64,000 nucleotides of DNA, from assembly GCA_964586255.1 (NCBI GenBank), contig CAZPGE010000005.1, positions 12,775-76,774 of the forward strand, in the 5' to 3' direction. Within the stretch, counting starts at the first letter, position 1. Every line of letters starts with the position of its first letter. The notes below the pieces were generated by a model. It ran no database searches. It saw nothing but the letters and a program-made list of their open reading frames with translations, and had not been told where the DNA came from. Both the position numbers and the translations under genes were made by a program. The DNA is from an uncultured Candidatus Saccharibacteria bacterium (lineage in GTDB: Bacteria > Patescibacteriota > Minisyncoccia > Phycocordibacterales > UBA2100). This document shows positions 15,414 to 22,342 of this stretch, piece after piece.

Positions 15414-15486
15414 GTAAACAGGGCGCAACATACGGCGCAGGCCTGTTCTAAGCCGTTTCCGTTTCCACGATTTCTCTATATGTGAG

Positions 15487-15894
15487 ATGATTTCCTCTAT
15501 GGATGAAGCCGGTTGGTACTCGACACTGCTTAAGCCCGTATGGGCGCCGCCCGCGTGGCTCTTTTCGCCGGTCTGGACGGTGCTCTATGCCATTATCGCC
15601 GCCACCTTCGGATACGTCTTTTACAAAACGTATAAAAGGGAATTGCCACTTCGTGTCGCGCTTCCGTTTGCGTTCAACCTGGTATGCAATGCGGCATTTA
15701 CCCCAATCCAGTTCGGACTGCAGAACAATCTCCTGGCCGCCCTCGACATCACTCTCGTGCTCATCACACTCGTGTGGGCGCTCCTTGTCATCTATCCGCG
15801 ATACCGATGGGTCGCGCTCGCAAATATCCCGTACCTGCTCTGGGTGTCTTTTGCGACCGTTCTGCAGTTTACCGTCACGTATTTGAACTTCTAG
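15487..15894 (+). CDS. tspO: TspO/MBR (tryptophan-rich sensory protein) family membrane protein
   Basis: W..L..P.W.PP...F..VW..LY, Trp-rich with 5 TM helices. Confidence 0.8.
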   Translation: MISSMDEAGWYSTLLKPVWAPPAWLFSPVWTVLYAIIAATFGYVFYKTYKRELPLRVALPFAFNLVCNAAFTPIQFGLQNNLLAALDITLVLITLVWALLVIYPRYRWVALANIPYLLWVSFATVLQFTVTYLNF

Positions 15895-15951
15895 CTACCA
15901 CTCCGATTTTTCACAAAGAAATCGTACGCAATTAGACACAGGGAATCTGTT

Positions 15952-15977
15952 CTAGTGTTTTGCAAAAGACTGCAATA
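15952..15977 (+). repeat. 26-nt near-palindromic repeat, copy A (candidate operator; overlaps the -35-like TTGCAA of the arsR-like gene)
   Basis: ctagtgttttgcaaaagactgcaata, with core AGTGTTTTG|CAAAAGACT (8 of 9 positions palindromic). Exact copies lie at 16242-16267 and 44438-44463. Confidence 0.8.
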
Positions 15978-15992
15978 GATTAAAATATATGC

Positions 15993-16268
15993 ATGGCGGA
16001 GGTTTCGTACAGGAAACTTGAGCGCATCATCAAAGGGTTCGCCAATCACCGGCGTCTGCAAATTTTGGACTTGCTCAAGCGCGAGCCGGAGTTATCCGTG
16101 GAAGATGTCTCGGAGAGGCTGCGCATAGGATATGAGAATGCGTCTGACCACTTGCGCAAGCTGGCGGTCGCGGGGCTCGTCCTCAAGCGCAATGAGGGGA
16201 GTAGTGTACGGCACAAGCTGACCACTCGCGCCGAGTCTATACTAGTGTTTTGCAAAAGACTGCAATAA
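15993..16268 (+). CDS. ArsR/SmtB-family HTH transcriptional regulator (91 aa), possible controller of the downstream RM gene
   Basis: HRRLQILDLLKREPELSVEDVSERLRIGYENASDHLRKLAVAGLVLKRNEGSSVRHKLT is a winged-HTH ArsR pattern. Its last 9 codons and stop are encoded by repeat copy B. Confidence 0.7.
   Translation: MAEVSYRKLERIIKGFANHRRLQILDLLKREPELSVEDVSERLRIGYENASDHLRKLAVAGLVLKRNEGSSVRHKLTTRAESILVFCKRLQ
16242..16267 (+). repeat. 26-nt near-palindromic repeat, copy B (3' end of the arsR-like gene, upstream of the RM leader)
   Basis: Identical 26-mer ctagtgttttgcaaaagactgcaata. Confidence 0.8.
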
Positions 16269-16309: not shown

Positions 16310-16521
16310 GGTGAGGGTAGAGGGAGGGGTAGGAAAATGGGGGATGTGTGGGATGATTTTGCATATGATGATTATCCTCGGTATAGCCGTATTCCTCATC
16401 TTCGCCATCGGCCTGGCCTTCGTCATCTCCTGAGAGGGGAAGGATGGCAGCGACAAAAAGGAATAATCCCACCCTGGGCCCCGTTTCCCCAAAGTGAAGA
16501 TTTGTGGGATGATTTCGCCTA

Positions 16522-19347
16522 ATGGCCGTCAATTGGAAAGATATACAAGATAGGTCCGAAAAGTTCGTTGTCGACTATCGTGACGCTAGGGATGAAGACA
16601 GGGACGCGAAACCATTCTGGAAGGACCTCATGACGCTCTACGGCGTTGAAGCGCGCTCCGTTGGAGCGTTTGAAGAGCGCGTGCGTGTCCACGGCAGACC
16701 AGGTGTCGGAAAAATAGACTATTTCGCGCCGCGGCAATTCCTCATCGAGCACAAATCGCGAGGCGAAGATCTCGATAAAGCATACAAGCAAGCGCTCGAA
16801 TATTTCGACTCGCTCGCGAGTGAGCTCCGCCCGCGCTACATCGTTGTCTCCGACTTCGCGCGTATCCGCGTGCACGACCTGGAAAAAGAAGAATCAGACC
16901 GCATCTCCGAGTTTGCGTTGGAAGAACTACCCTCGCGCGTGCGCGAGCTCGCATTTTTTGCGGAAGAAGACGTGCGTATCTACAAGCCAGAAGAGCATAT
17001 AGATGTAAAAGCAGTCCGTGTGGTGGGCAAGCTGCACAAAGCTCTCAAGACCTCCAATTATCCACAAGAAGATCTGCCGCGACTCCTTACGCGACTCGTT
17101 TTCTGTTTCTTTGCCGACGACATCGGGATATTCGAGAAAAATGCGATGCGACACTATCTCGAAGAGAACACCCGCGAAGACGGCGCTGATGTGGGTGAGA
17201 AACTTCACAATATCTTCGAAGTGCTCGACACACCCGACGGCACGGCAGGTTCACGCGATGAGCGCCAAGCGGGGACGCTCGATACGCTTCGTGACCTCCC
17301 GTGGGTCAACGGCGGCATGTTCAAAGGCCCCGTACGGCTTCTCCAGGGAGATAGGGAGATACGCGACATGCTCATCGAATGCATGTCTTTTGATTGGTCG
17401 CAGGTGTCGCCCGCAATATTCGGCTCTATGTTCCAGAGCATAATGAATGAGAAAGAAAGGCATGACCTCGGTGCGCACTACACGAGCGAGACCAACATCA
17501 AGAAAGTCATCAACGGACTTTTCCTCGAAGAATTGCAGAAAGAGCTCGACGTGGCTGCGACCAACAAAGACCGACTCAATGCATTGTGGGATAAAATTGC
17601 GAGAATCACGCTGCTCGATCCTGCCTGCGGTTGCGGCAACTTCCTCGTGATTTCGTACCGCGAACTCCGCACCATAGAGAACGAAATCATCCGCCGTATT
17701 CACGGGAGGGAAGACAAGCGCAGCGCTGCACATGCGCAGAGTCATGCCCGCCTCGGCCTCGCCAATGCTGATCTCGATACCATGTCGAAGCTCTCGATAG
17801 AGAGAATGTATGGAATAGAAATAGACCAGTTTGCGGCGGAGGTAGCTAAGCTTTCGCTCTGGCTCGTGGATCACAAGATGAACATCGAACTCGGTCGCAT
17901 TTTCGACCAGACGTTTAGAAAGTTGCCGCTCAAAGAGCAGCCGCACATCGTTCAGGACAACGCGCTGCGAATAGACTGGGAGAGCGTAGTCCAAAAAGAC
18001 AAGCTCACCCACATCCTCGGCAACCCACCATTCCTCGGTAAACATATGCAAACGCTCGAACAGAAGTCGGAACTACTAGAGGTGTTCGGTGGGGTACAGA
18101 ACGCCTCTGACCTTGACTACGTTGCCGCCTGGTATCGCAAAGCGACCGAATACATCCAGGGCACGAAAATCAATTGCGCATTCGTTTCGACAAACTCGAT
18201 CACTCAAGGGGAACAGGTGAGCATTTTATGGCCGGATGTGTTGTCTCGAGGGGTTCGGATTCAGTTCGCGCACAGAACGTTTAAATGGACAAATGAGGCC
18301 ACTGGAAAAGCGGCCGTGTACTGTGTAATCATTGGCTTCGGACTAACAGATGCTAAGCAGCCAAAACTGTTCGAGTATGACGATATCAGGGGCGAGCCGC
18401 GGATGGTCTTGGTCACACACATTAATCCTTATCTCGTAGATGCATCAAATGTTGTCGTAGAGAAGCGCCAGAGACCTTTGTGCGAAGTGCCGATAATGCG
18501 ATACGGCAATAAACCAAGTGATTCAGGCGCTCTCATTCTCAGTACAATGGAAAAAGATCGCCTAATCGTCGCAGAGCCGGTCGCTAAAAAATGGCTTAGG
18601 CCATATGTTGGTGCCGAAGAATTTTTGAATGGAGGTACCCGTTGGTGCCTATGGCTTGTTGGGATAACGCCTGATGAGTTGCGCGCAATGCCCGAGGTGG
18701 TGCGTCGAGTACAAGTAGTGAAAGACTTTCGCGAACTGAGTACTGCGAAACCCACCCGCGAGGCTGCCAAGACACCGTGGCTCTTCTTCTATGTCTCACA
18801 GCCCACAACCGATTACATTCTCATTCCTGAAACATCGTCGGAAAATCGGGAATGGATTCCCTTTGGTTTTGTATCTAAAGACGTGATATCGAGCAACGCA
18901 ACGTACCACATCCCCGAGCCTAATCTCTATGTTTTTGGTGTATTGCAGTCAACCATGCATATGGCTTGGGTTCGCACTGTGGCCGGTCGGCTAAAATCGG
19001 ACTATCGATACACAGGTAGCCTCGTCTACAACACTTATCCGTGGCCGGAAAAAGTGGGCGATGCGCAGAAAAAAGCCGTCGAAGACGCAGCGCAGAATGT
19101 TCTTGATGTGCGTGCAAAGTACCCCACCTCGACTCTCGCCGACCTGTACGACCCTCTCACCATGCCGCAAGATCTCCTCGTCGCACACAAGGCTCTCGAT
19201 AAAGCCGTCGACGCCTGTTACGGAGTGAAAGGTTTCAAATCCGAACCCGAACGTCTCGAATTCCTCTTTGAGCTATACAAGAAGCTCACTGCATCCGAAT
19301 CAAAGGAAGCGCCCGCCAAGAAATTCCACAAGAAAACCCTCTCTTGA
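16522..19347 (+). CDS. Type IIL restriction-modification enzyme, MmeI family (single-chain endonuclease + N6-adenine methyltransferase + TRD)
   Basis: Collinear with MmeI along its length: N-terminal AKPFW...IDYF...LIEHKSRGEDLDKAY (PD-ExK residues D..E.K), motif I LLDPACGCGNFLVISYRELR, motif IV ILGNPPFLGK, then FVSTNSITQGEQVSILWP and the C-terminal SLVYNTYPW...LYDPLTMPQDLLVAHKALDKAVD block. Confidence 0.9.
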   Translation: MAVNWKDIQDRSEKFVVDYRDARDEDRDAKPFWKDLMTLYGVEARSVGAFEERVRVHGRPGVGKIDYFAPRQFLIEHKSRGEDLDKAYKQALEYFDSLASELRPRYIVVSDFARIRVHDLEKEESDRISEFALEELPSRVRELAFFAEEDVRIYKPEEHIDVKAVRVVGKLHKALKTSNYPQEDLPRLLTRLVFCFFADDIGIFEKNAMRHYLEENTREDGADVGEKLHNIFEVLDTPDGTAGSRDERQAGTLDTLRDLPWVNGGMFKGPVRLLQGDREIRDMLIECMSFDWSQVSPAIFGSMFQSIMNEKERHDLGAHYTSETNIKKVINGLFLEELQKELDVAATNKDRLNALWDKIARITLLDPACGCGNFLVISYRELRTIENEIIRRIHGREDKRSAAHAQSHARLGLANADLDTMSKLSIERMYGIEIDQFAAEVAKLSLWLVDHKMNIELGRIFDQTFRKLPLKEQPHIVQDNALRIDWESVVQKDKLTHILGNPPFLGKHMQTLEQKSELLEVFGGVQNASDLDYVAAWYRKATEYIQGTKINCAFVSTNSITQGEQVSILWPDVLSRGVRIQFAHRTFKWTNEATGKAAVYCVIIGFGLTDAKQPKLFEYDDIRGEPRMVLVTHINPYLVDASNVVVEKRQRPLCEVPIMRYGNKPSDSGALILSTMEKDRLIVAEPVAKKWLRPYVGAEEFLNGGTRWCLWLVGITPDELRAMPEVVRRVQVVKDFRELSTAKPTREAAKTPWLFFYVSQPTTDYILIPETSSENREWIPFGFVSKDVISSNATYHIPEPNLYVFGVLQSTMHMAWVRTVAGRLKSDYRYTGSLVYNTYPWPEKVGDAQKKAVEDAAQNVLDVRAKYPTSTLADLYDPLTMPQDLLVAHKALDKAVDACYGVKGFKSEPERLEFLFELYKKLTASESKEAPAKKFHKKTLS

Positions 19348-19400
19348 GACCCCTTCGTTATAAGAACGCATTCTATGCAATAATATCTGTACCTGGACTT

Positions 19401-19751
19401 ATGCTTTTAGTCAGAACTAAAATTGCGAAGAGTTCCATACATGGGAATGGACTTTTTGCGGACGAAGACATTGCAAAGGGAACAATTGTTTGGTCGTTCA
19501 ATCCGCTTATCGATAAGATCTTGACAGATGAACAGATTCAGAGTCTCCCCGCGCATATTCGCGAGCATATTGATACCTATAGTTTCATTGATGACGGAAT
19601 GCATATACTGTGCGGCGACTTCGGGATCTTTGTTAACCATTCGGATACTCCGAACCTTGGATCAGCTGGGGACGACAGTGTTGCAATTCGCGACATCAAA
19701 AGGGGCGAGGAAATCACTGATGATTATGATTCCTATGGTGAAGAGATTTAG
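19401..19751 (+). CDS. SET-domain protein (putative protein-lysine N-methyltransferase), 116 aa
   Basis: SSIHGNGLFA...IAKGTIV...FVNHSDTPN...AIRDIKRGEEITDDY fits the SET pattern G.G.FA / NHSC.PN / RDI..GEE.T.DY. It starts 54 nt after the RM stop; the track's TTG at 19344 overlaps that stop. Confidence 0.7.
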   Translation: MLLVRTKIAKSSIHGNGLFADEDIAKGTIVWSFNPLIDKILTDEQIQSLPAHIREHIDTYSFIDDGMHILCGDFGIFVNHSDTPNLGSAGDDSVAIRDIKRGEEITDDYDSYGEEI

Positions 19752-19754
19752 CTT

Positions 19755-20297
19755 ATGGTGAGAACGCTCTACAACCTCTTAATACCAATTCTTATTGCTG
19801 CTATGGGAATGTTCCTGGGCTCCTGGTTGCTACTTCAGTATTCGCAGGCGCAATTAGTGATGTATACGGACGGGTATTATCAAAATATGGATGAGGTGGC
19901 CATCGGCGAGTTCTATATAGTGAACGAGGGTAGAGAGGTTGATGAGAACGTGACCGTGGCAATAAACAAAGAAATTGAGAAGGACGAATTGACCATCAAT
20001 TATACTCGCTCGAATTGGAATGTTGAAACGAAAGACGGCCTGACCTATATCAATTTTGAGCAGATCAATCCCGCGGAAGGGATAGAAGTGCTATTTAAAC
20101 TTGCCGCGGGTGATGCAAGCTTTAAAGTCGAGGACTTTACCAGCAAGTCTGGAAACACCTATATCAGACCGTGGATTGAGCCTTGGTGGTATTTCACAAG
20201 ATTACAGCTGGCGCTCATTTTCTTTTTCCTTACGATTGCGTTCGGCTTCGGATTTGTCATAGGACTATGGAAGAATGACGTACTTAGAATTCGCTGA
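19755..20297 (+). CDS. Hypothetical membrane protein (N- and C-terminal TM helices, central soluble domain)
   Basis: Hydrophobic termini; 3-nt gap after the SET gene. Confidence 0.5.
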   Translation: MVRTLYNLLIPILIAAMGMFLGSWLLLQYSQAQLVMYTDGYYQNMDEVAIGEFYIVNEGREVDENVTVAINKEIEKDELTINYTRSNWNVETKDGLTYINFEQINPAEGIEVLFKLAAGDASFKVEDFTSKSGNTYIRPWIEPWWYFTRLQLALIFFFLTIAFGFGFVIGLWKNDVLRIR

Positions 20298-21490
20298 TGC
20301 AAACGGACTTTCTGATTCTGGGAGCCGATGGAATGCAGGGCTCGACCATCAGTCGCTTTCTCTGCAAGAGAGGATACAGGGTATCATGTGCAGATCTTGT
20401 CGATACCCGTTTGGCTACGCTAGATTTCAAATATGTCTTCCATAAATTGGATGTTGCTGACCCAGCGGCCCTGGCGCAACGAATCCGTTTTGATAACCCA
20501 AGGATCGTCATCAATTGCGTCGAGGGAGATTTAAATCTGGACGTATATCGAGTCTGTTTACGCGAAAGAGTGAATGTCATCGACCTAGGTTCCAGCATCC
20601 TTCTTACTAAGAAACAACTTGCCCTGAATCGGCAATTCAAAGAATCAGCGATAATTGGTATCACTGGTTGTGGATCGACTCCGGGTATTAATAACGTAAT
20701 GTTCCGGCATGCGTTAGAAGATTTTGATGAAATTACTGACCTTGATCTGGGCTTTGCTTGGGATTCGAATCTCAAGGAATTCGTTGCTCCTTTTTCTATG
20801 GGTAGCGTCCTATATGAATTGTCCGAACCTGCACACTTCATAGAAGGAAAGGAGCTAAAGAAGACATCTCCACTCAAATCTGGGCGGAGTAGATGGATCG
20901 ATCCCATCGGAAAACAAGAACTGTTTCTAGTCCATCATCCAGAAATCTATTCTTTTAACAGATTTTGCAAGAAAAAAGGAAAGCAACCGCAGAATGTTTA
21001 TTTTTATGCAGGTTTTCCGGAGCACAGTCTTGCTACTCTTAAATCCCTTGTCCAGTTGGGATTTTCTCATTCCGAAAAGCCTGTCACTCTCGACGAGGTT
21101 GCCATATACCCAACAGATTTCCTGACAATGATGTTAAAGAACATTGATCTGCCTGATTCTTATGTCGAGACAGAGGTATTGTGGGTAAGTATTAAGGGAC
21201 TGAGGGCGGGAAAGCCAAAAGTAGTAAAAATGGTATGCATCGTAGATTCGTTACCAGATTGGCGGATGGCAGGGTGTAATATCGATACTGCATTCCCGGC
21301 GGCATTAATTGCTGAAATGATTTACCGGGGTGAAATCAGTTCAAAGGGGAGTTTTTCTCCAGAGGAAGTTGTGCCTGAACAGCGATTCTTCAACGAGATC
21401 GCTAAATTTGGGATGCGAATATACAAAAACGGAGAGCTTATCAATGGGCTTGATCTGGTGGTCCGCAATGCGGCGGTGCGAAGCGGATAA
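20297..21490 (+). CDS. Saccharopine-dehydrogenase-like NAD(P)-binding protein (SDH / carboxynorspermidine-dehydrogenase superfamily)
   Basis: N-terminal Rossmann FLILGADGMQGSTISRFL; about 400 aa, the size and architecture of Sacchrp_dh proteins; ATGA overlap with the upstream gene. Confidence 0.6.
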   Translation: MQTDFLILGADGMQGSTISRFLCKRGYRVSCADLVDTRLATLDFKYVFHKLDVADPAALAQRIRFDNPRIVINCVEGDLNLDVYRVCLRERVNVIDLGSSILLTKKQLALNRQFKESAIIGITGCGSTPGINNVMFRHALEDFDEITDLDLGFAWDSNLKEFVAPFSMGSVLYELSEPAHFIEGKELKKTSPLKSGRSRWIDPIGKQELFLVHHPEIYSFNRFCKKKGKQPQNVYFYAGFPEHSLATLKSLVQLGFSHSEKPVTLDEVAIYPTDFLTMMLKNIDLPDSYVETEVLWVSIKGLRAGKPKVVKMVCIVDSLPDWRMAGCNIDTAFPAALIAEMIYRGEISSKGSFSPEEVVPEQRFFNEIAKFGMRIYKNGELINGLDLVVRNAAVRSG

Positions 21491-21511: not shown

Positions 21512-22342
21512 CTATAGGAACCTGTCGGATGACGTCCCTGACTTAATGAGCGAGCGATAGAGGAAGGGGAATCGAAGTCGGTCGAGCTCAAGAAAATATA
21601 CTTCCGCAGGTTTTTCGGGTGAGCCACCGACACCGAAAGCGACGTAGACAGGGATACCTGTTTGTTTCTGGTAGTCCTCGTAGCGCATTTGCTGTCCCAT
21701 ATTCCACCAAATACCCTGGCCACCGTTTGGCTGCCACGCCCATTTCCCGCGCCACTTACATTCAATGGCAAATACCTTACCGCTTTGCACGGAACGAAAT
21801 ACAAAATCAGGATGGCCGTCCGATTCCACTCGGCGCTTGATATGCTTCCCCGTGTCGCGCGTTCGGTCCTGTATGGTGAAATCTGATTCAGGAAATAGCG
21901 TCACGATATAATCCTCAAACCGAGTGCCTTTTTTGTATGAATCTGTCGCCCAGTATGTCGCATAAACAACGCCCGCGATGGTCAGAATATCCAATATCAC
22001 CCAAATCTCACGAGGGAGTGAAAAATAGGCAAAAGGATTAAACAGCGCAGCCGTGAGTGCGCTCGCGAGCGCGATTTTCTTGTTGCCAAGTTGTAGAAAG
22101 AGAATCGATAGAGCGCCAAAGATGCCGAAGGCGGCTAATCGGAGAGCGTAGAAGTTCTCGCTTATACCAGTAGCGGCAATGAAGAGAACGATCGCAACGC
22201 AGCCTGCGCCTATACGCACGCTATAGATTAGATTTTGCGTCGCAAACATGAAGAAATCATACCACCGGCAAATAGACCAAAATAGGAGAGAAAGGTCATT
22301 TGTGCTAGGATGGTCCGGAAGGTCGTTCCCCTTAGTAGCCAC
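21512..22342 (-). CDS. Membrane protein with C-terminal PD-(D/E)xK nuclease-like motif (NERD/restriction-endonuclease-like fold), GTG start
   Basis: Three or four N-terminal TM helices; C-terminal GHPDFVFRSVQSGKVFAIECKWRG (PD...E.K). Confidence 0.5.
   Translation of the reverse strand: MATKGNDLPDHPSTNDLSLLFWSICRWYDFFMFATQNLIYSVRIGAGCVAIVLFIAATGISENFYALRLAAFGIFGALSILFLQLGNKKIALASALTAALFNPFAYFSLPREIWVILDILTIAGVVYATYWATDSYKKGTRFEDYIVTLFPESDFTIQDRTRDTGKHIKRRVESDGHPDFVFRSVQSGKVFAIECKWRGKWAWQPNGGQGIWWNMGQQMRYEDYQKQTGIPVYVAFGVGGSPEKPAEVYFLELDRLRFPFLYRSLIKSGTSSDRFL

Follow-up and report, generated by a model that had tools for sequence, protein, structure and literature searches.

A conserved operon of a SET-domain protein, a membrane protein and a carboxyspermidine-dehydrogenase-like enzyme in a Saccharibacteria genome, with a possible role in polyamine- or lysine-type amine modification

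The carboxyspermidine and carboxynorspermidine dehydrogenases (CASDH and CANSDH; structures 8DEB, 8H4Z, 4INA and 4RL6) and the viral methyltransferase vSET are the closest described counterparts of two products of a three-gene operon that we analysed in a 64,000-nucleotide stretch of DNA from an uncultured Candidatus Saccharibacteria bacterium (contig CAZPGE010000005.1; the whole stretch is referred to here as the window). The operon encodes a minimal SET-domain methyltransferase, a membrane protein with two transmembrane helices and a CASDH-like oxidoreductase. This enzyme shares with CASDH and CANSDH the three-domain saccharopine-dehydrogenase fold over its full length, and CASDH's catalytic His and a pair of its active-site Glu residues are conserved, which would imply imine-forming reductive amination. 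However, it is only 20–23% identical to CASDH, with GxxGxxG in place of GxGxxG, Asp-Leu-Val in place of Ser-Arg-Thr and Pro in place of Glu229, and no partner decarboxylase was seen with its clade, the partners instead being SET proteins, PurD-like ATP-grasp proteins or DAO oxidases. The SET protein can be likened, by size and architecture rather than by sequence, to vSET of chlorovirus PBCV-1, which is also a very small SET protein (about 116–119 residues) without a post-SET zinc cluster. vSET has been called the smallest histone methyltransferase, and PBCV-1 virions package a minimal SET methylase, a homospermidine synthase and restriction endonucleases (PMC7019647). As an analogy only, PBCV-1 is a case of a mobile or viral genome carrying a polyamine enzyme together with restriction genes, and relatives of the window SET protein occur in phage and giant-virus contigs. 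The target of vSET, however, is a eukaryotic histone (H3K27), and vSET has not been reported adjacent or fused to a polyamine enzyme.

Three further systems resemble parts of the locus. The PavA/PavB cluster for pavettamine and the pyruvoyl S-adenosylmethionine (AdoMet) decarboxylase family are similar in that, in a sister clade of the membrane protein, AdoMet_dc and DUF3326 fill the slot taken here by the CASDH-like gene, although PavB/DUF3326 and the window enzyme belong to different protein families and a sequence search with the proteins of locus L099 found no DUF3326 or AdoMet_dc relative in the window. Deoxyhypusine synthase (DHS) and the DHS-like homospermidine synthases carry out NAD-dependent aminoalkyl transfer to lysine or a diamine and include a SET-fused example, but their fold is unrelated to that of the window enzyme and no DHS relative was found in the window by sequence search. 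Finally, the three genes and their relatives sit beside changing restriction-modification (RM) systems, as genes of defence islands do, whereas their products match no PADLOC model and the neighbouring MmeI-type gene is not a conserved partner. The enzymes come from known superfamilies, but their combination with the membrane protein appears to be undescribed, and in the literature we found no report joining SET domains to saccharopine dehydrogenases, to candidate phyla radiation (CPR) bacteria or to polyamines. Judging the chemistry from family membership and gene context, we read the locus tentatively as an autonomous, mobile operon, apparently of ultra-small bacteria of the CPR/Patescibacteria type, that derivatises a polyamine- or lysine-type amine and resides in RM-rich variable regions, a reading that we regard as quite possible if still short of probable.

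The three plus-strand open reading frames that the initial annotation placed in an AT-rich island are present (Table 1), and their GC content (43.6% for the SET gene, 44.0% for the membrane protein gene and 44.4% for the CASDH-like gene, i.e. about 44%) is well below that of the window (55%), the upstream MmeI gene (51.9%) and the flanking genes (52–63%). The junctions had been described as 3-nt or ATGA. The first holds for the SET and membrane protein genes, where the stop codon at 19749–19751 is followed by the ATG at 19755, leaving a 3-nt spacer; at the second junction the stop and start codons instead share a single base (TGATG). By contrast, 53 nt separate the MmeI stop codon (19345–19347) from the SET ATG (19401), so the translational coupling of SET to the RM gene that had been proposed does not hold; the three genes (hereafter the triad) are coupled among themselves only. 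The SET start used here, which gives a protein of 116 residues, is the start common to the homologues and was also chosen by independent gene callers. The order SET, membrane protein, CASDH-like enzyme recurs with the identical 1-nt overlap in at least five other lineages, at protein identities of 46–78% and with unrelated flanks. Because these tight junctions are kept in homologous loci, the arrangement is no chance feature.

We then asked about the broad clade to which the enzyme belongs, using a census of 79–80 GTDB species loci with 150 immediate neighbour genes. A SET gene lies within one or two genes of the enzyme in 12/80 loci, in four different orientations, and SET genes occupy 10 of the 150 adjacent slots compared with 4 of 617 other slots in the same loci (odds ratio 11, Fisher p=3e-5). 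In one protein (P0053, 550 aa; three independent assemblies) a SET domain is fused to the enzyme; a full-library search with this fusion protein found no second fusion of SET and saccharopine dehydrogenase (SDH) domains among the 50% representatives. The link between SET and the enzyme clade is independent of any RM gene. Other partners recur too: in seven loci a three-gene operon encodes a PurD-like ATP-grasp protein, an SDH-like enzyme and a SET protein (the ATP-grasp protein is not PurD, since it scores 109 bits against a PurD cut-off of 288), and in 14 other loci the enzyme gene is divergent to a gene for a DAO-family FAD oxidase, for which L-pipecolate oxidase is the closest relative that has a name. 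By Pfam family the 150 immediate neighbours comprise DAO (14), SET (10), GARS-type ATP-grasp (8), paralogues of the enzyme (5–6), flavin amine oxidase (2) and deoxyhypusine synthase (1), and carboxy(nor)spermidine decarboxylase is not among the 25 most frequent of the 132 families. Pairs of SET and SDH genes were also seen in two bona fide phage contigs (IMG/VR 3300047160), L111 (2774–4882) and L112 (7519–9161), near portal (DUF4055), Mu-F and terminase-like genes; here one or two SET genes lie directly upstream of, and overlap, a gene whose product belongs to the CASDH-like clade with 34% identity and which is followed by a ParB_N gene.

The SET assignment made in the initial annotation, including its quoted motifs, was upheld. 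The protein matches Pfam PF00856 over model positions 1–104 of 105 with 47.4 bits (cut-off 22.4, E=2.8e-12), and the motifs are in place: GxG as HGNGLFA (aa 14–20, 19440–19460), NHSxxPN as NHSDTPN (aa 79–85, 19635–19655) and a motif of the ELxxDY type as EEITDDY (aa 103–109, 19707–19727), which ends in the catalytic-type Tyr. Across 27 SET proteins G17 and N79 are invariant, and H80 and S81 nearly so. Homologues in the triads of other lineages are 59–78% identical. Two SET subtypes occur near the enzyme clade: type A, the minimal kind found in the window, and type B, which has a post-SET Cys cluster. Such a (zinc) cluster is common to many SET enzymes without being universal; it was not found in the window SET protein, whereas the type B proteins beside or fused to the clade, including that of P0053, have one. 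In five of the ATP-grasp operons (L017, L018, L027, L028 and L041) the downstream SET protein has ELLCDC for ELxxDY, a Cys replacing the catalytic Tyr, which points to a changed chemistry or to a role other than catalysis. The SET gene can also stand alone, outside the SET–SDH context: minimal-SET relatives with 27–46% identity are found in 31 IMG/VR contigs (L113–L143; GC 24–72%), giant-virus metagenome-assembled genomes included, and in these 31 contigs there was neither a recurrent neighbour nor a polyamine enzyme nearby.

The third protein, annotated initially as an SDH-family enzyme of about 400 aa, does have that size and carries both Pfam domains (Sacchrp_dh_NADP, PF03435, E=5.2e-9, 37.0 bits against a cut-off of 25.1; Sacchrp_dh_C, PF16653, E=1.4e-15, 58.5 bits against a cut-off of 31), but carboxyspermidine dehydrogenase is a closer relative of it than saccharopine dehydrogenase is. 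When 16 family members were combined into a profile, this matched the carboxyspermidine dehydrogenases 8deb, 4ina and 8h4z over the full length with E values of 1e-43 to 1e-40, compared with 9e-11 for lysine dehydrogenase 3abi and 1e-4 for saccharopine reductase. The AlphaFold2 (AF2) model of the enzyme (pLDDT 88.9) shows the three-domain fold and was superposed by Foldseek on CASDH structures with TM-scores of 0.76–0.82 at 20–23% identity; it also matches lysine dehydrogenase and saccharopine reductase structures. In BfCASDH the active site comprises His228-Glu229-Glu230, Glu188 and Ser144, and NADPH is bound through Ser34, Arg35, Thr36 and Lys39, the first three at its phosphate (PMC10413350). 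His228, Glu230 and Glu188 align with His214, Glu216 and Glu174 of the window enzyme, which are invariant in the clade; the residues concerned are encoded at 20936–20944 (His214-Pro215-Glu216) and 20816–20818 (Glu174), and those of the nucleotide-binding region at 20321–20341 (G9xxG12xxG15) and 20393–20395 (Asp33). The clade (mean column identity 58%) is large, with more than 570 protein clusters and 211 GTDB species among Patescibacteria, DPANN archaea and Nitrosopumilaceae, plus three phage contigs, and within the literature searched this CASDH-like clade from CPR bacteria as well as DPANN archaea appears to be undescribed. Tandem paralogues of the CASDH-like gene, in two or three copies, were seen in L033, L037, L053, L058, L077 and L084, several of which are DPANN archaeal contigs.

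The enzyme thus retains the imine-chemistry residues of CASDH yet, as judged by its sequence, falls outside CASDH proper. Three narrower identities, i.e. true CASDH, saccharopine dehydrogenase and lysine 6-dehydrogenase, were rejected on the missed cut-off of the NCBIfam carboxynorspermidine synthase model (NF043000; 58.1 bits, far under the cut-off of 800) together with the changed active-site and cofactor residues, and the automatic names "saccharopine dehydrogenase" and "lysine 6-dehydrogenase" given to homologues in public records are unsupported. A suicide enzyme that uses its own lysine, like BioU, was rejected as the clade has no invariant Lys.

The claim that the second gene encodes a two-helix membrane protein agrees with the AF2 model (pLDDT 84), in which two hydrophobic helices (about aa 2–29 and 149–179) stand on either side of a beta-sandwich of about 115 residues and 10 strands. 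The short tail after the second helix reads GLWKND, and its Lys173 (20271–20273) is invariant in both sub-clades of the protein. Pfam, NCBIfam and PADLOC gave no family match, and a fold search returned only generic CBM-like beta-sandwiches. Homologues are few (10 in the first search, mean column identity 61%) and fall into two sub-clades. The first (54–60% identity) is always found in triads of SET, membrane protein and SDH genes (L001-3/L100, L094, L104-106, L107 and L109). The second (40–43% identity) is arranged as membrane protein, optionally SET, AdoMet_dc and DUF3326, with the SET gene in L099 and L101 and without it in L102 and L103. The membrane protein is therefore the constant element, and the neighbouring slot is taken by a varying polyamine-type enzyme. 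L101 and L102 are closely related contigs, whose MutH-like proteins differ at a few residues, and a convergent SET gene lies between the membrane protein and AdoMet_dc genes in L101 only; since its close relative L102 has none, the SET gene acts as an optional insert. In L108 a gene at 878–1663 directly upstream of the membrane protein homologue encodes a 261-aa protein with marginal likeness to the core of lysyl-tRNA synthetase (PDB 5hgq, E=0.004; weak tRNA-synt_2), which may be an EpmA-like lysine-adding paralogue.

The polyamine theme repeats through unrelated enzyme families. In P0291 (503 aa), which comes from a TARA marine metagenome and an ENA contig and has a partial copy in P0215, DHS is fused to a SET domain that shares its subtype and 47% identity with the SET domain of the SET–SDH fusion P0053. 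DHS genes also adjoin the enzyme clade in L073 and L083, and the sister sub-clade of the membrane protein is always beside AdoMet_dc and DUF3326, with or without SET. DUF3326 is PavB, which together with a carboxynorspermidine-decarboxylase-like protein is needed for the triamine intermediate of the polyamine pavettamine, in a preprint whose biochemistry is itself incomplete (bioRxiv 10.64898/2026.06.12.731819). The suggestion that the genes form a lysine or polyamine modification module is strengthened by the SET/SDH-like adjacency and fusion, by the DHS–SET fusion and by these sister modules. The repeated pairing of SET with a polyamine-type enzyme (adjacency, two fusions and phage-borne pairs) points to unexplored amine chemistry, for which N-methylated polyamines and hypusine-like protein modifications are candidates, in CPR bacteria and DPANN archaea, hosts whose metabolism is little known.

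Under the reading that we prefer, i.e. that of an operon derivatising a polyamine- or lysine-type amine, the CASDH-like enzyme, with NAD(H) or perhaps NADPH as cofactor, would build or split a secondary amine through an imine that joins an aldehyde or a keto acid to a primary amine, be it a diamine, a polyamine or a side chain of lysine type. With S-adenosylmethionine as donor, the SET protein would N-methylate an amino group of that molecule; a polyamine arm of the aminobutyl or aminopropyl kind resembles the lysine side chain, the usual ligand of SET domains. The membrane protein would work at the cell envelope, where it would localise the product, export it or receive it. The operon would not be a mechanistic part of the MmeI enzyme, an MmeI-type gene merely happening to fill the upstream slot in this species.

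Several observations weigh against this reading. We know of no small-molecule substrate for SET domains, and a search of the literature brought up none; a SET protein that methylates a polyamine or a polyamine-like modified lysine would, if true, have a kind of substrate that has not been shown for SET enzymes before. The surroundings of the triad include no carboxy-polyamine decarboxylase, and 46 of the 80 broad-clade loci lack the recurrent partners (SET, ATP-grasp and DAO). A 74%-identical homologue of the window SET protein (L095/L096) is accompanied by nucleases and not by the membrane protein and SDH genes. The adjacency of restriction genes, described below, is not accounted for by a purely metabolic role. 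In the enzyme itself, Glu229 of BfCASDH is replaced by Pro215 and Ser144 by Asn132 (Asn or Gly in the clade), and Ser34-Arg35-Thr36 align with Asp33-Leu34-Val35; with these active-site and NADPH-phosphate residues replaced, the enzyme may differ from CASDH in its substrates and in the way its reaction runs. An Asp at this position of a Rossmann fold usually marks an NAD(H) enzyme, and Asp33 together with GxxGxxG, in place of Ser-Arg-Thr, suggests NAD(H) rather than NADPH.

The restriction genes raise the alternative that the triad is an anti-phage or restriction-accessory system, which acts with or guards the neighbouring restriction system, e.g. by modifying a host or phage component or by triggering a membrane effector. 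The initial annotation had the module riding with a defence gene, the MmeI-type enzyme, in which MmeI_N, MmeI_hel, MmeI_Mtase, MmeI_TRD and MmeI_C are joined in one polypeptide (E 7e-31 to 1e-95; PADLOC REase_MTase_IIG, 1136 bits). This particular partnership fails: when the MmeI protein was searched against the open reading frames of the loci collected, it was found beside the triad only in contigs of the same species (L090–L093). More than 100 other loci had no match, and an MmeI-specific link was rejected on this ground. A looser link to other restriction types is seen, however. In L104-106, as in L107 and L109, an EcoRI-like methylase and a GmrSD_N/HNH nuclease lie about 75 nt upstream of SET; in L101–L103 an N6_N4 methylase and a MutH/Sau3AI-like endonuclease lie 8 nt upstream of the membrane protein gene, with DpnI inserted in L103; and in L001-3 a His-Me/Endonuclease_7-like gene lies 75 nt downstream, with a convergent LexA–N6_N4 methylase fusion gene. 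The triad of L094 lies amid housekeeping genes, and the flanks of L099 and L108 are uninformative. With the MmeI gene upstream of the window triad, modules containing the membrane protein thus stand directly beside restriction-type genes of four kinds in 4–5 of 7–8 lineages, the type differing each time, in a sample that is small, drawn mostly from short contigs and without a genome-wide background.

The order methylase, GmrSD, SET is moreover kept although GmrSD proteins share only 41–70% and methylases 51–58% identity between lineages. It is found also in L095/L096, where a Panacea toxin-antitoxin gene lies in between and SET is followed by DUF2779 and a Cas4-like nuclease and not by the membrane protein and SDH genes, so that in these loci SET is surrounded by a methylase–GmrSD pair, a toxin-antitoxin gene and two nucleases. 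For the broad enzyme clade, by contrast, matches to PADLOC or RM models are confined to a handful of the 150 neighbour genes, and 3/80 loci have an N6_N4 methylase at a distance of 6 kb or less; since these neighbours so seldom match, the enrichment appears specific to the sub-family with the membrane protein, and it looks real. The SET relatives in 31 viral contigs and the SET–SDH pairs in two phages would also fit a role in defence. Against this, PADLOC-DB 2.0 gave no match for the SET and membrane proteins and only a noise-level BrxP match for the SDH-like protein (E=0.0028), i.e. nothing for the three proteins, so the triad was rejected as a known defence system. The L094 context and that of the broad clade are housekeeping-like, RM genes abound in CPR genomes and no more than eight lineages were compared, the triad apparently has its own promoter and a GC content unlike that of MmeI, and a sensing or effector mechanism is not evident. 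We consider a defence function unlikely; the restriction adjacency may reflect function or shared residence in mobile islands. If the link were functional, the triad would be a new kind of component of bacterial immunity, and if it were not, it would still provide a clean three-gene operon for assigning a function to the clade. It is similarly doubtful, on the same gene contexts, that the modules of membrane protein and polyamine-type enzyme, with or without SET, form an unrecognised class of restriction-associated defence island in ultra-small bacteria, with the SET protein methylating a polyamine or a polyamine-like modified lysine.

Two side observations concern nuclease- and methylase-like genes in these neighbourhoods. 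Fusions of LexA (DNA-binding domain and S24 peptidase) to an N6_N4 methyltransferase, 456–486 aa long, occur in L001 (7778–9148, minus strand) and L070 (2736–4196) and recur in CPR loci near the enzyme clade. In the window, the minus-strand DUF6804 gene downstream of the triad (GC 49.8%, i.e. intermediate) has a C-terminal part of about 140 aa with a D...ECK pattern that, by eye, recalls PD-(D/E)XK nucleases; the gene had no PADLOC or PDB match, the C-terminal domain had no family match, and the gene does not recur beside the triad in other species.

A protein rather than a small molecule could also be the substrate. In this alternative a protein lysine is derivatised in a hypusine-like manner, i.e. 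the SET protein methylates and the CASDH-like enzyme alkylates Lys173 in the GLWKND tail of the membrane protein, or a lysine of another protein. SET domains are established protein-lysine methyltransferases and the catalytic motifs are intact here; DHS, fused in P0291 to a SET domain of the subtype that is also fused to the CASDH-like clade, has a protein lysine as its alkylation target in archaea and eukaryotes; the membrane protein is constant while the enzymes beside it vary (CASDH-like, AdoMet_dc with DUF3326, or the lysyl-tRNA-synthetase-core-like paralogue of L108); and Lys173 is invariant in both sub-clades. However, the membrane protein is missing from the majority of loci that have a SET/SDH-like pair, L102 and L103 have the membrane protein with AdoMet_dc and DUF3326 and no SET, the match to lysyl-tRNA synthetase is marginal (E=0.004), and the cytoplasmic position of Lys173 is deduced solely from the charged N-terminus. 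In addition, no CASDH-family enzyme is, to our knowledge, known to act on proteins. We rate modification of a protein lysine as improbable, to much the same degree as a defence function.

That the three genes are unrelated neighbours, i.e. hitch-hiking cargo with no functional link among themselves or to genes nearby, as had been allowed for initially, would fit the 46/80 enzyme-clade loci without SET, ATP-grasp or DAO and the ability of the SET gene to occur alone, but is very improbable and largely refuted by the order and overlapping junctions kept across lineages at 46–78% identity, by the enrichment of SET at the adjacent slot (p=3e-5) and by the two independent fusions (SET–SDH and DHS–SET).

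Table 1. Positions of the triad and its immediate neighbours in the window
Feature	Position	Strand	Evidence or remark
MmeI-family type IIG/IIL restriction-modification enzyme, 941 aa	16522..19347	+	Neighbour, outside the operon; Pfam, PADLOC
Intergenic gap from RM stop to SET start, 53 nt	19348..19400	+	-10-like elements GTTATAAG, TGCAATAAT
Minimal SET-domain methyltransferase, 116 aa	19401..19751	+	Pfam SET
Two-helix membrane protein, 180 aa	19755..20297	+	AF2 model, homologues
CASDH-like oxidoreductase with saccharopine-dehydrogenase fold, 397 aa	20297..21490	+	Pfam, profile, AF2, Foldseek
Convergent gene with N-terminal DUF6804 membrane domain	21512..22342	-	Pfam E=1.3e-11; closes the low-GC stretch

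Upstream of the SET gene an extended -10 element, TGGTATAAT, lies about 35 nt before the start codon in L104, L107 and L109, and the weaker -10-like elements of the window (Table 1) occur in the 53-nt gap at the place aligned with it. A consensus scan of this gap found no terminator and no promoter match wholly inside it, the nearest match (19394–19423) extending into the SET gene. From these elements the triad probably has its own promoter in the gap, and this promoter and read-through from MmeI are both possible. Horizontal movement of the triad is suggested by the gap in GC content, by the 74%-identical SET homologue in a genome (L095) that shares no other genes and by the viral relatives of SET. 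The window contains no tRNA gene, and direct repeats that would flank the island were not found around 16.3–22.4 kb. Two proposals about the edges and origin of the island were rejected: synteny with L095 through TspO, as the TspO proteins share only 30% identity, and a phage origin of the triad, as the membrane protein is absent from IMG/VR, the enzyme is found there in three contigs only and the 31 viral SET contigs have no polyamine partners.

Two sets of repeats lie further upstream. A 35-nt direct repeat (91% identical; 15943–15977 and 16233–16267) with an internal palindrome, TTTTGCAAAA, brackets an ArsR-type winged-helix gene (15993–16268; Pfam HTH_5) that closely precedes the MmeI gene; this repeat looks like an operator, and the ArsR-type regulator could be a C-protein-like controller of the MmeI RM gene. 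A 23-nt repeat, GAT(G/T)TGTGGGATGATTT..., occurs three times (16343–16365, 16499–16521 and, in a weaker form, 15477–15499), where one copy stops precisely at the start codon of MmeI and a second overlaps the TspO start codon (15487).

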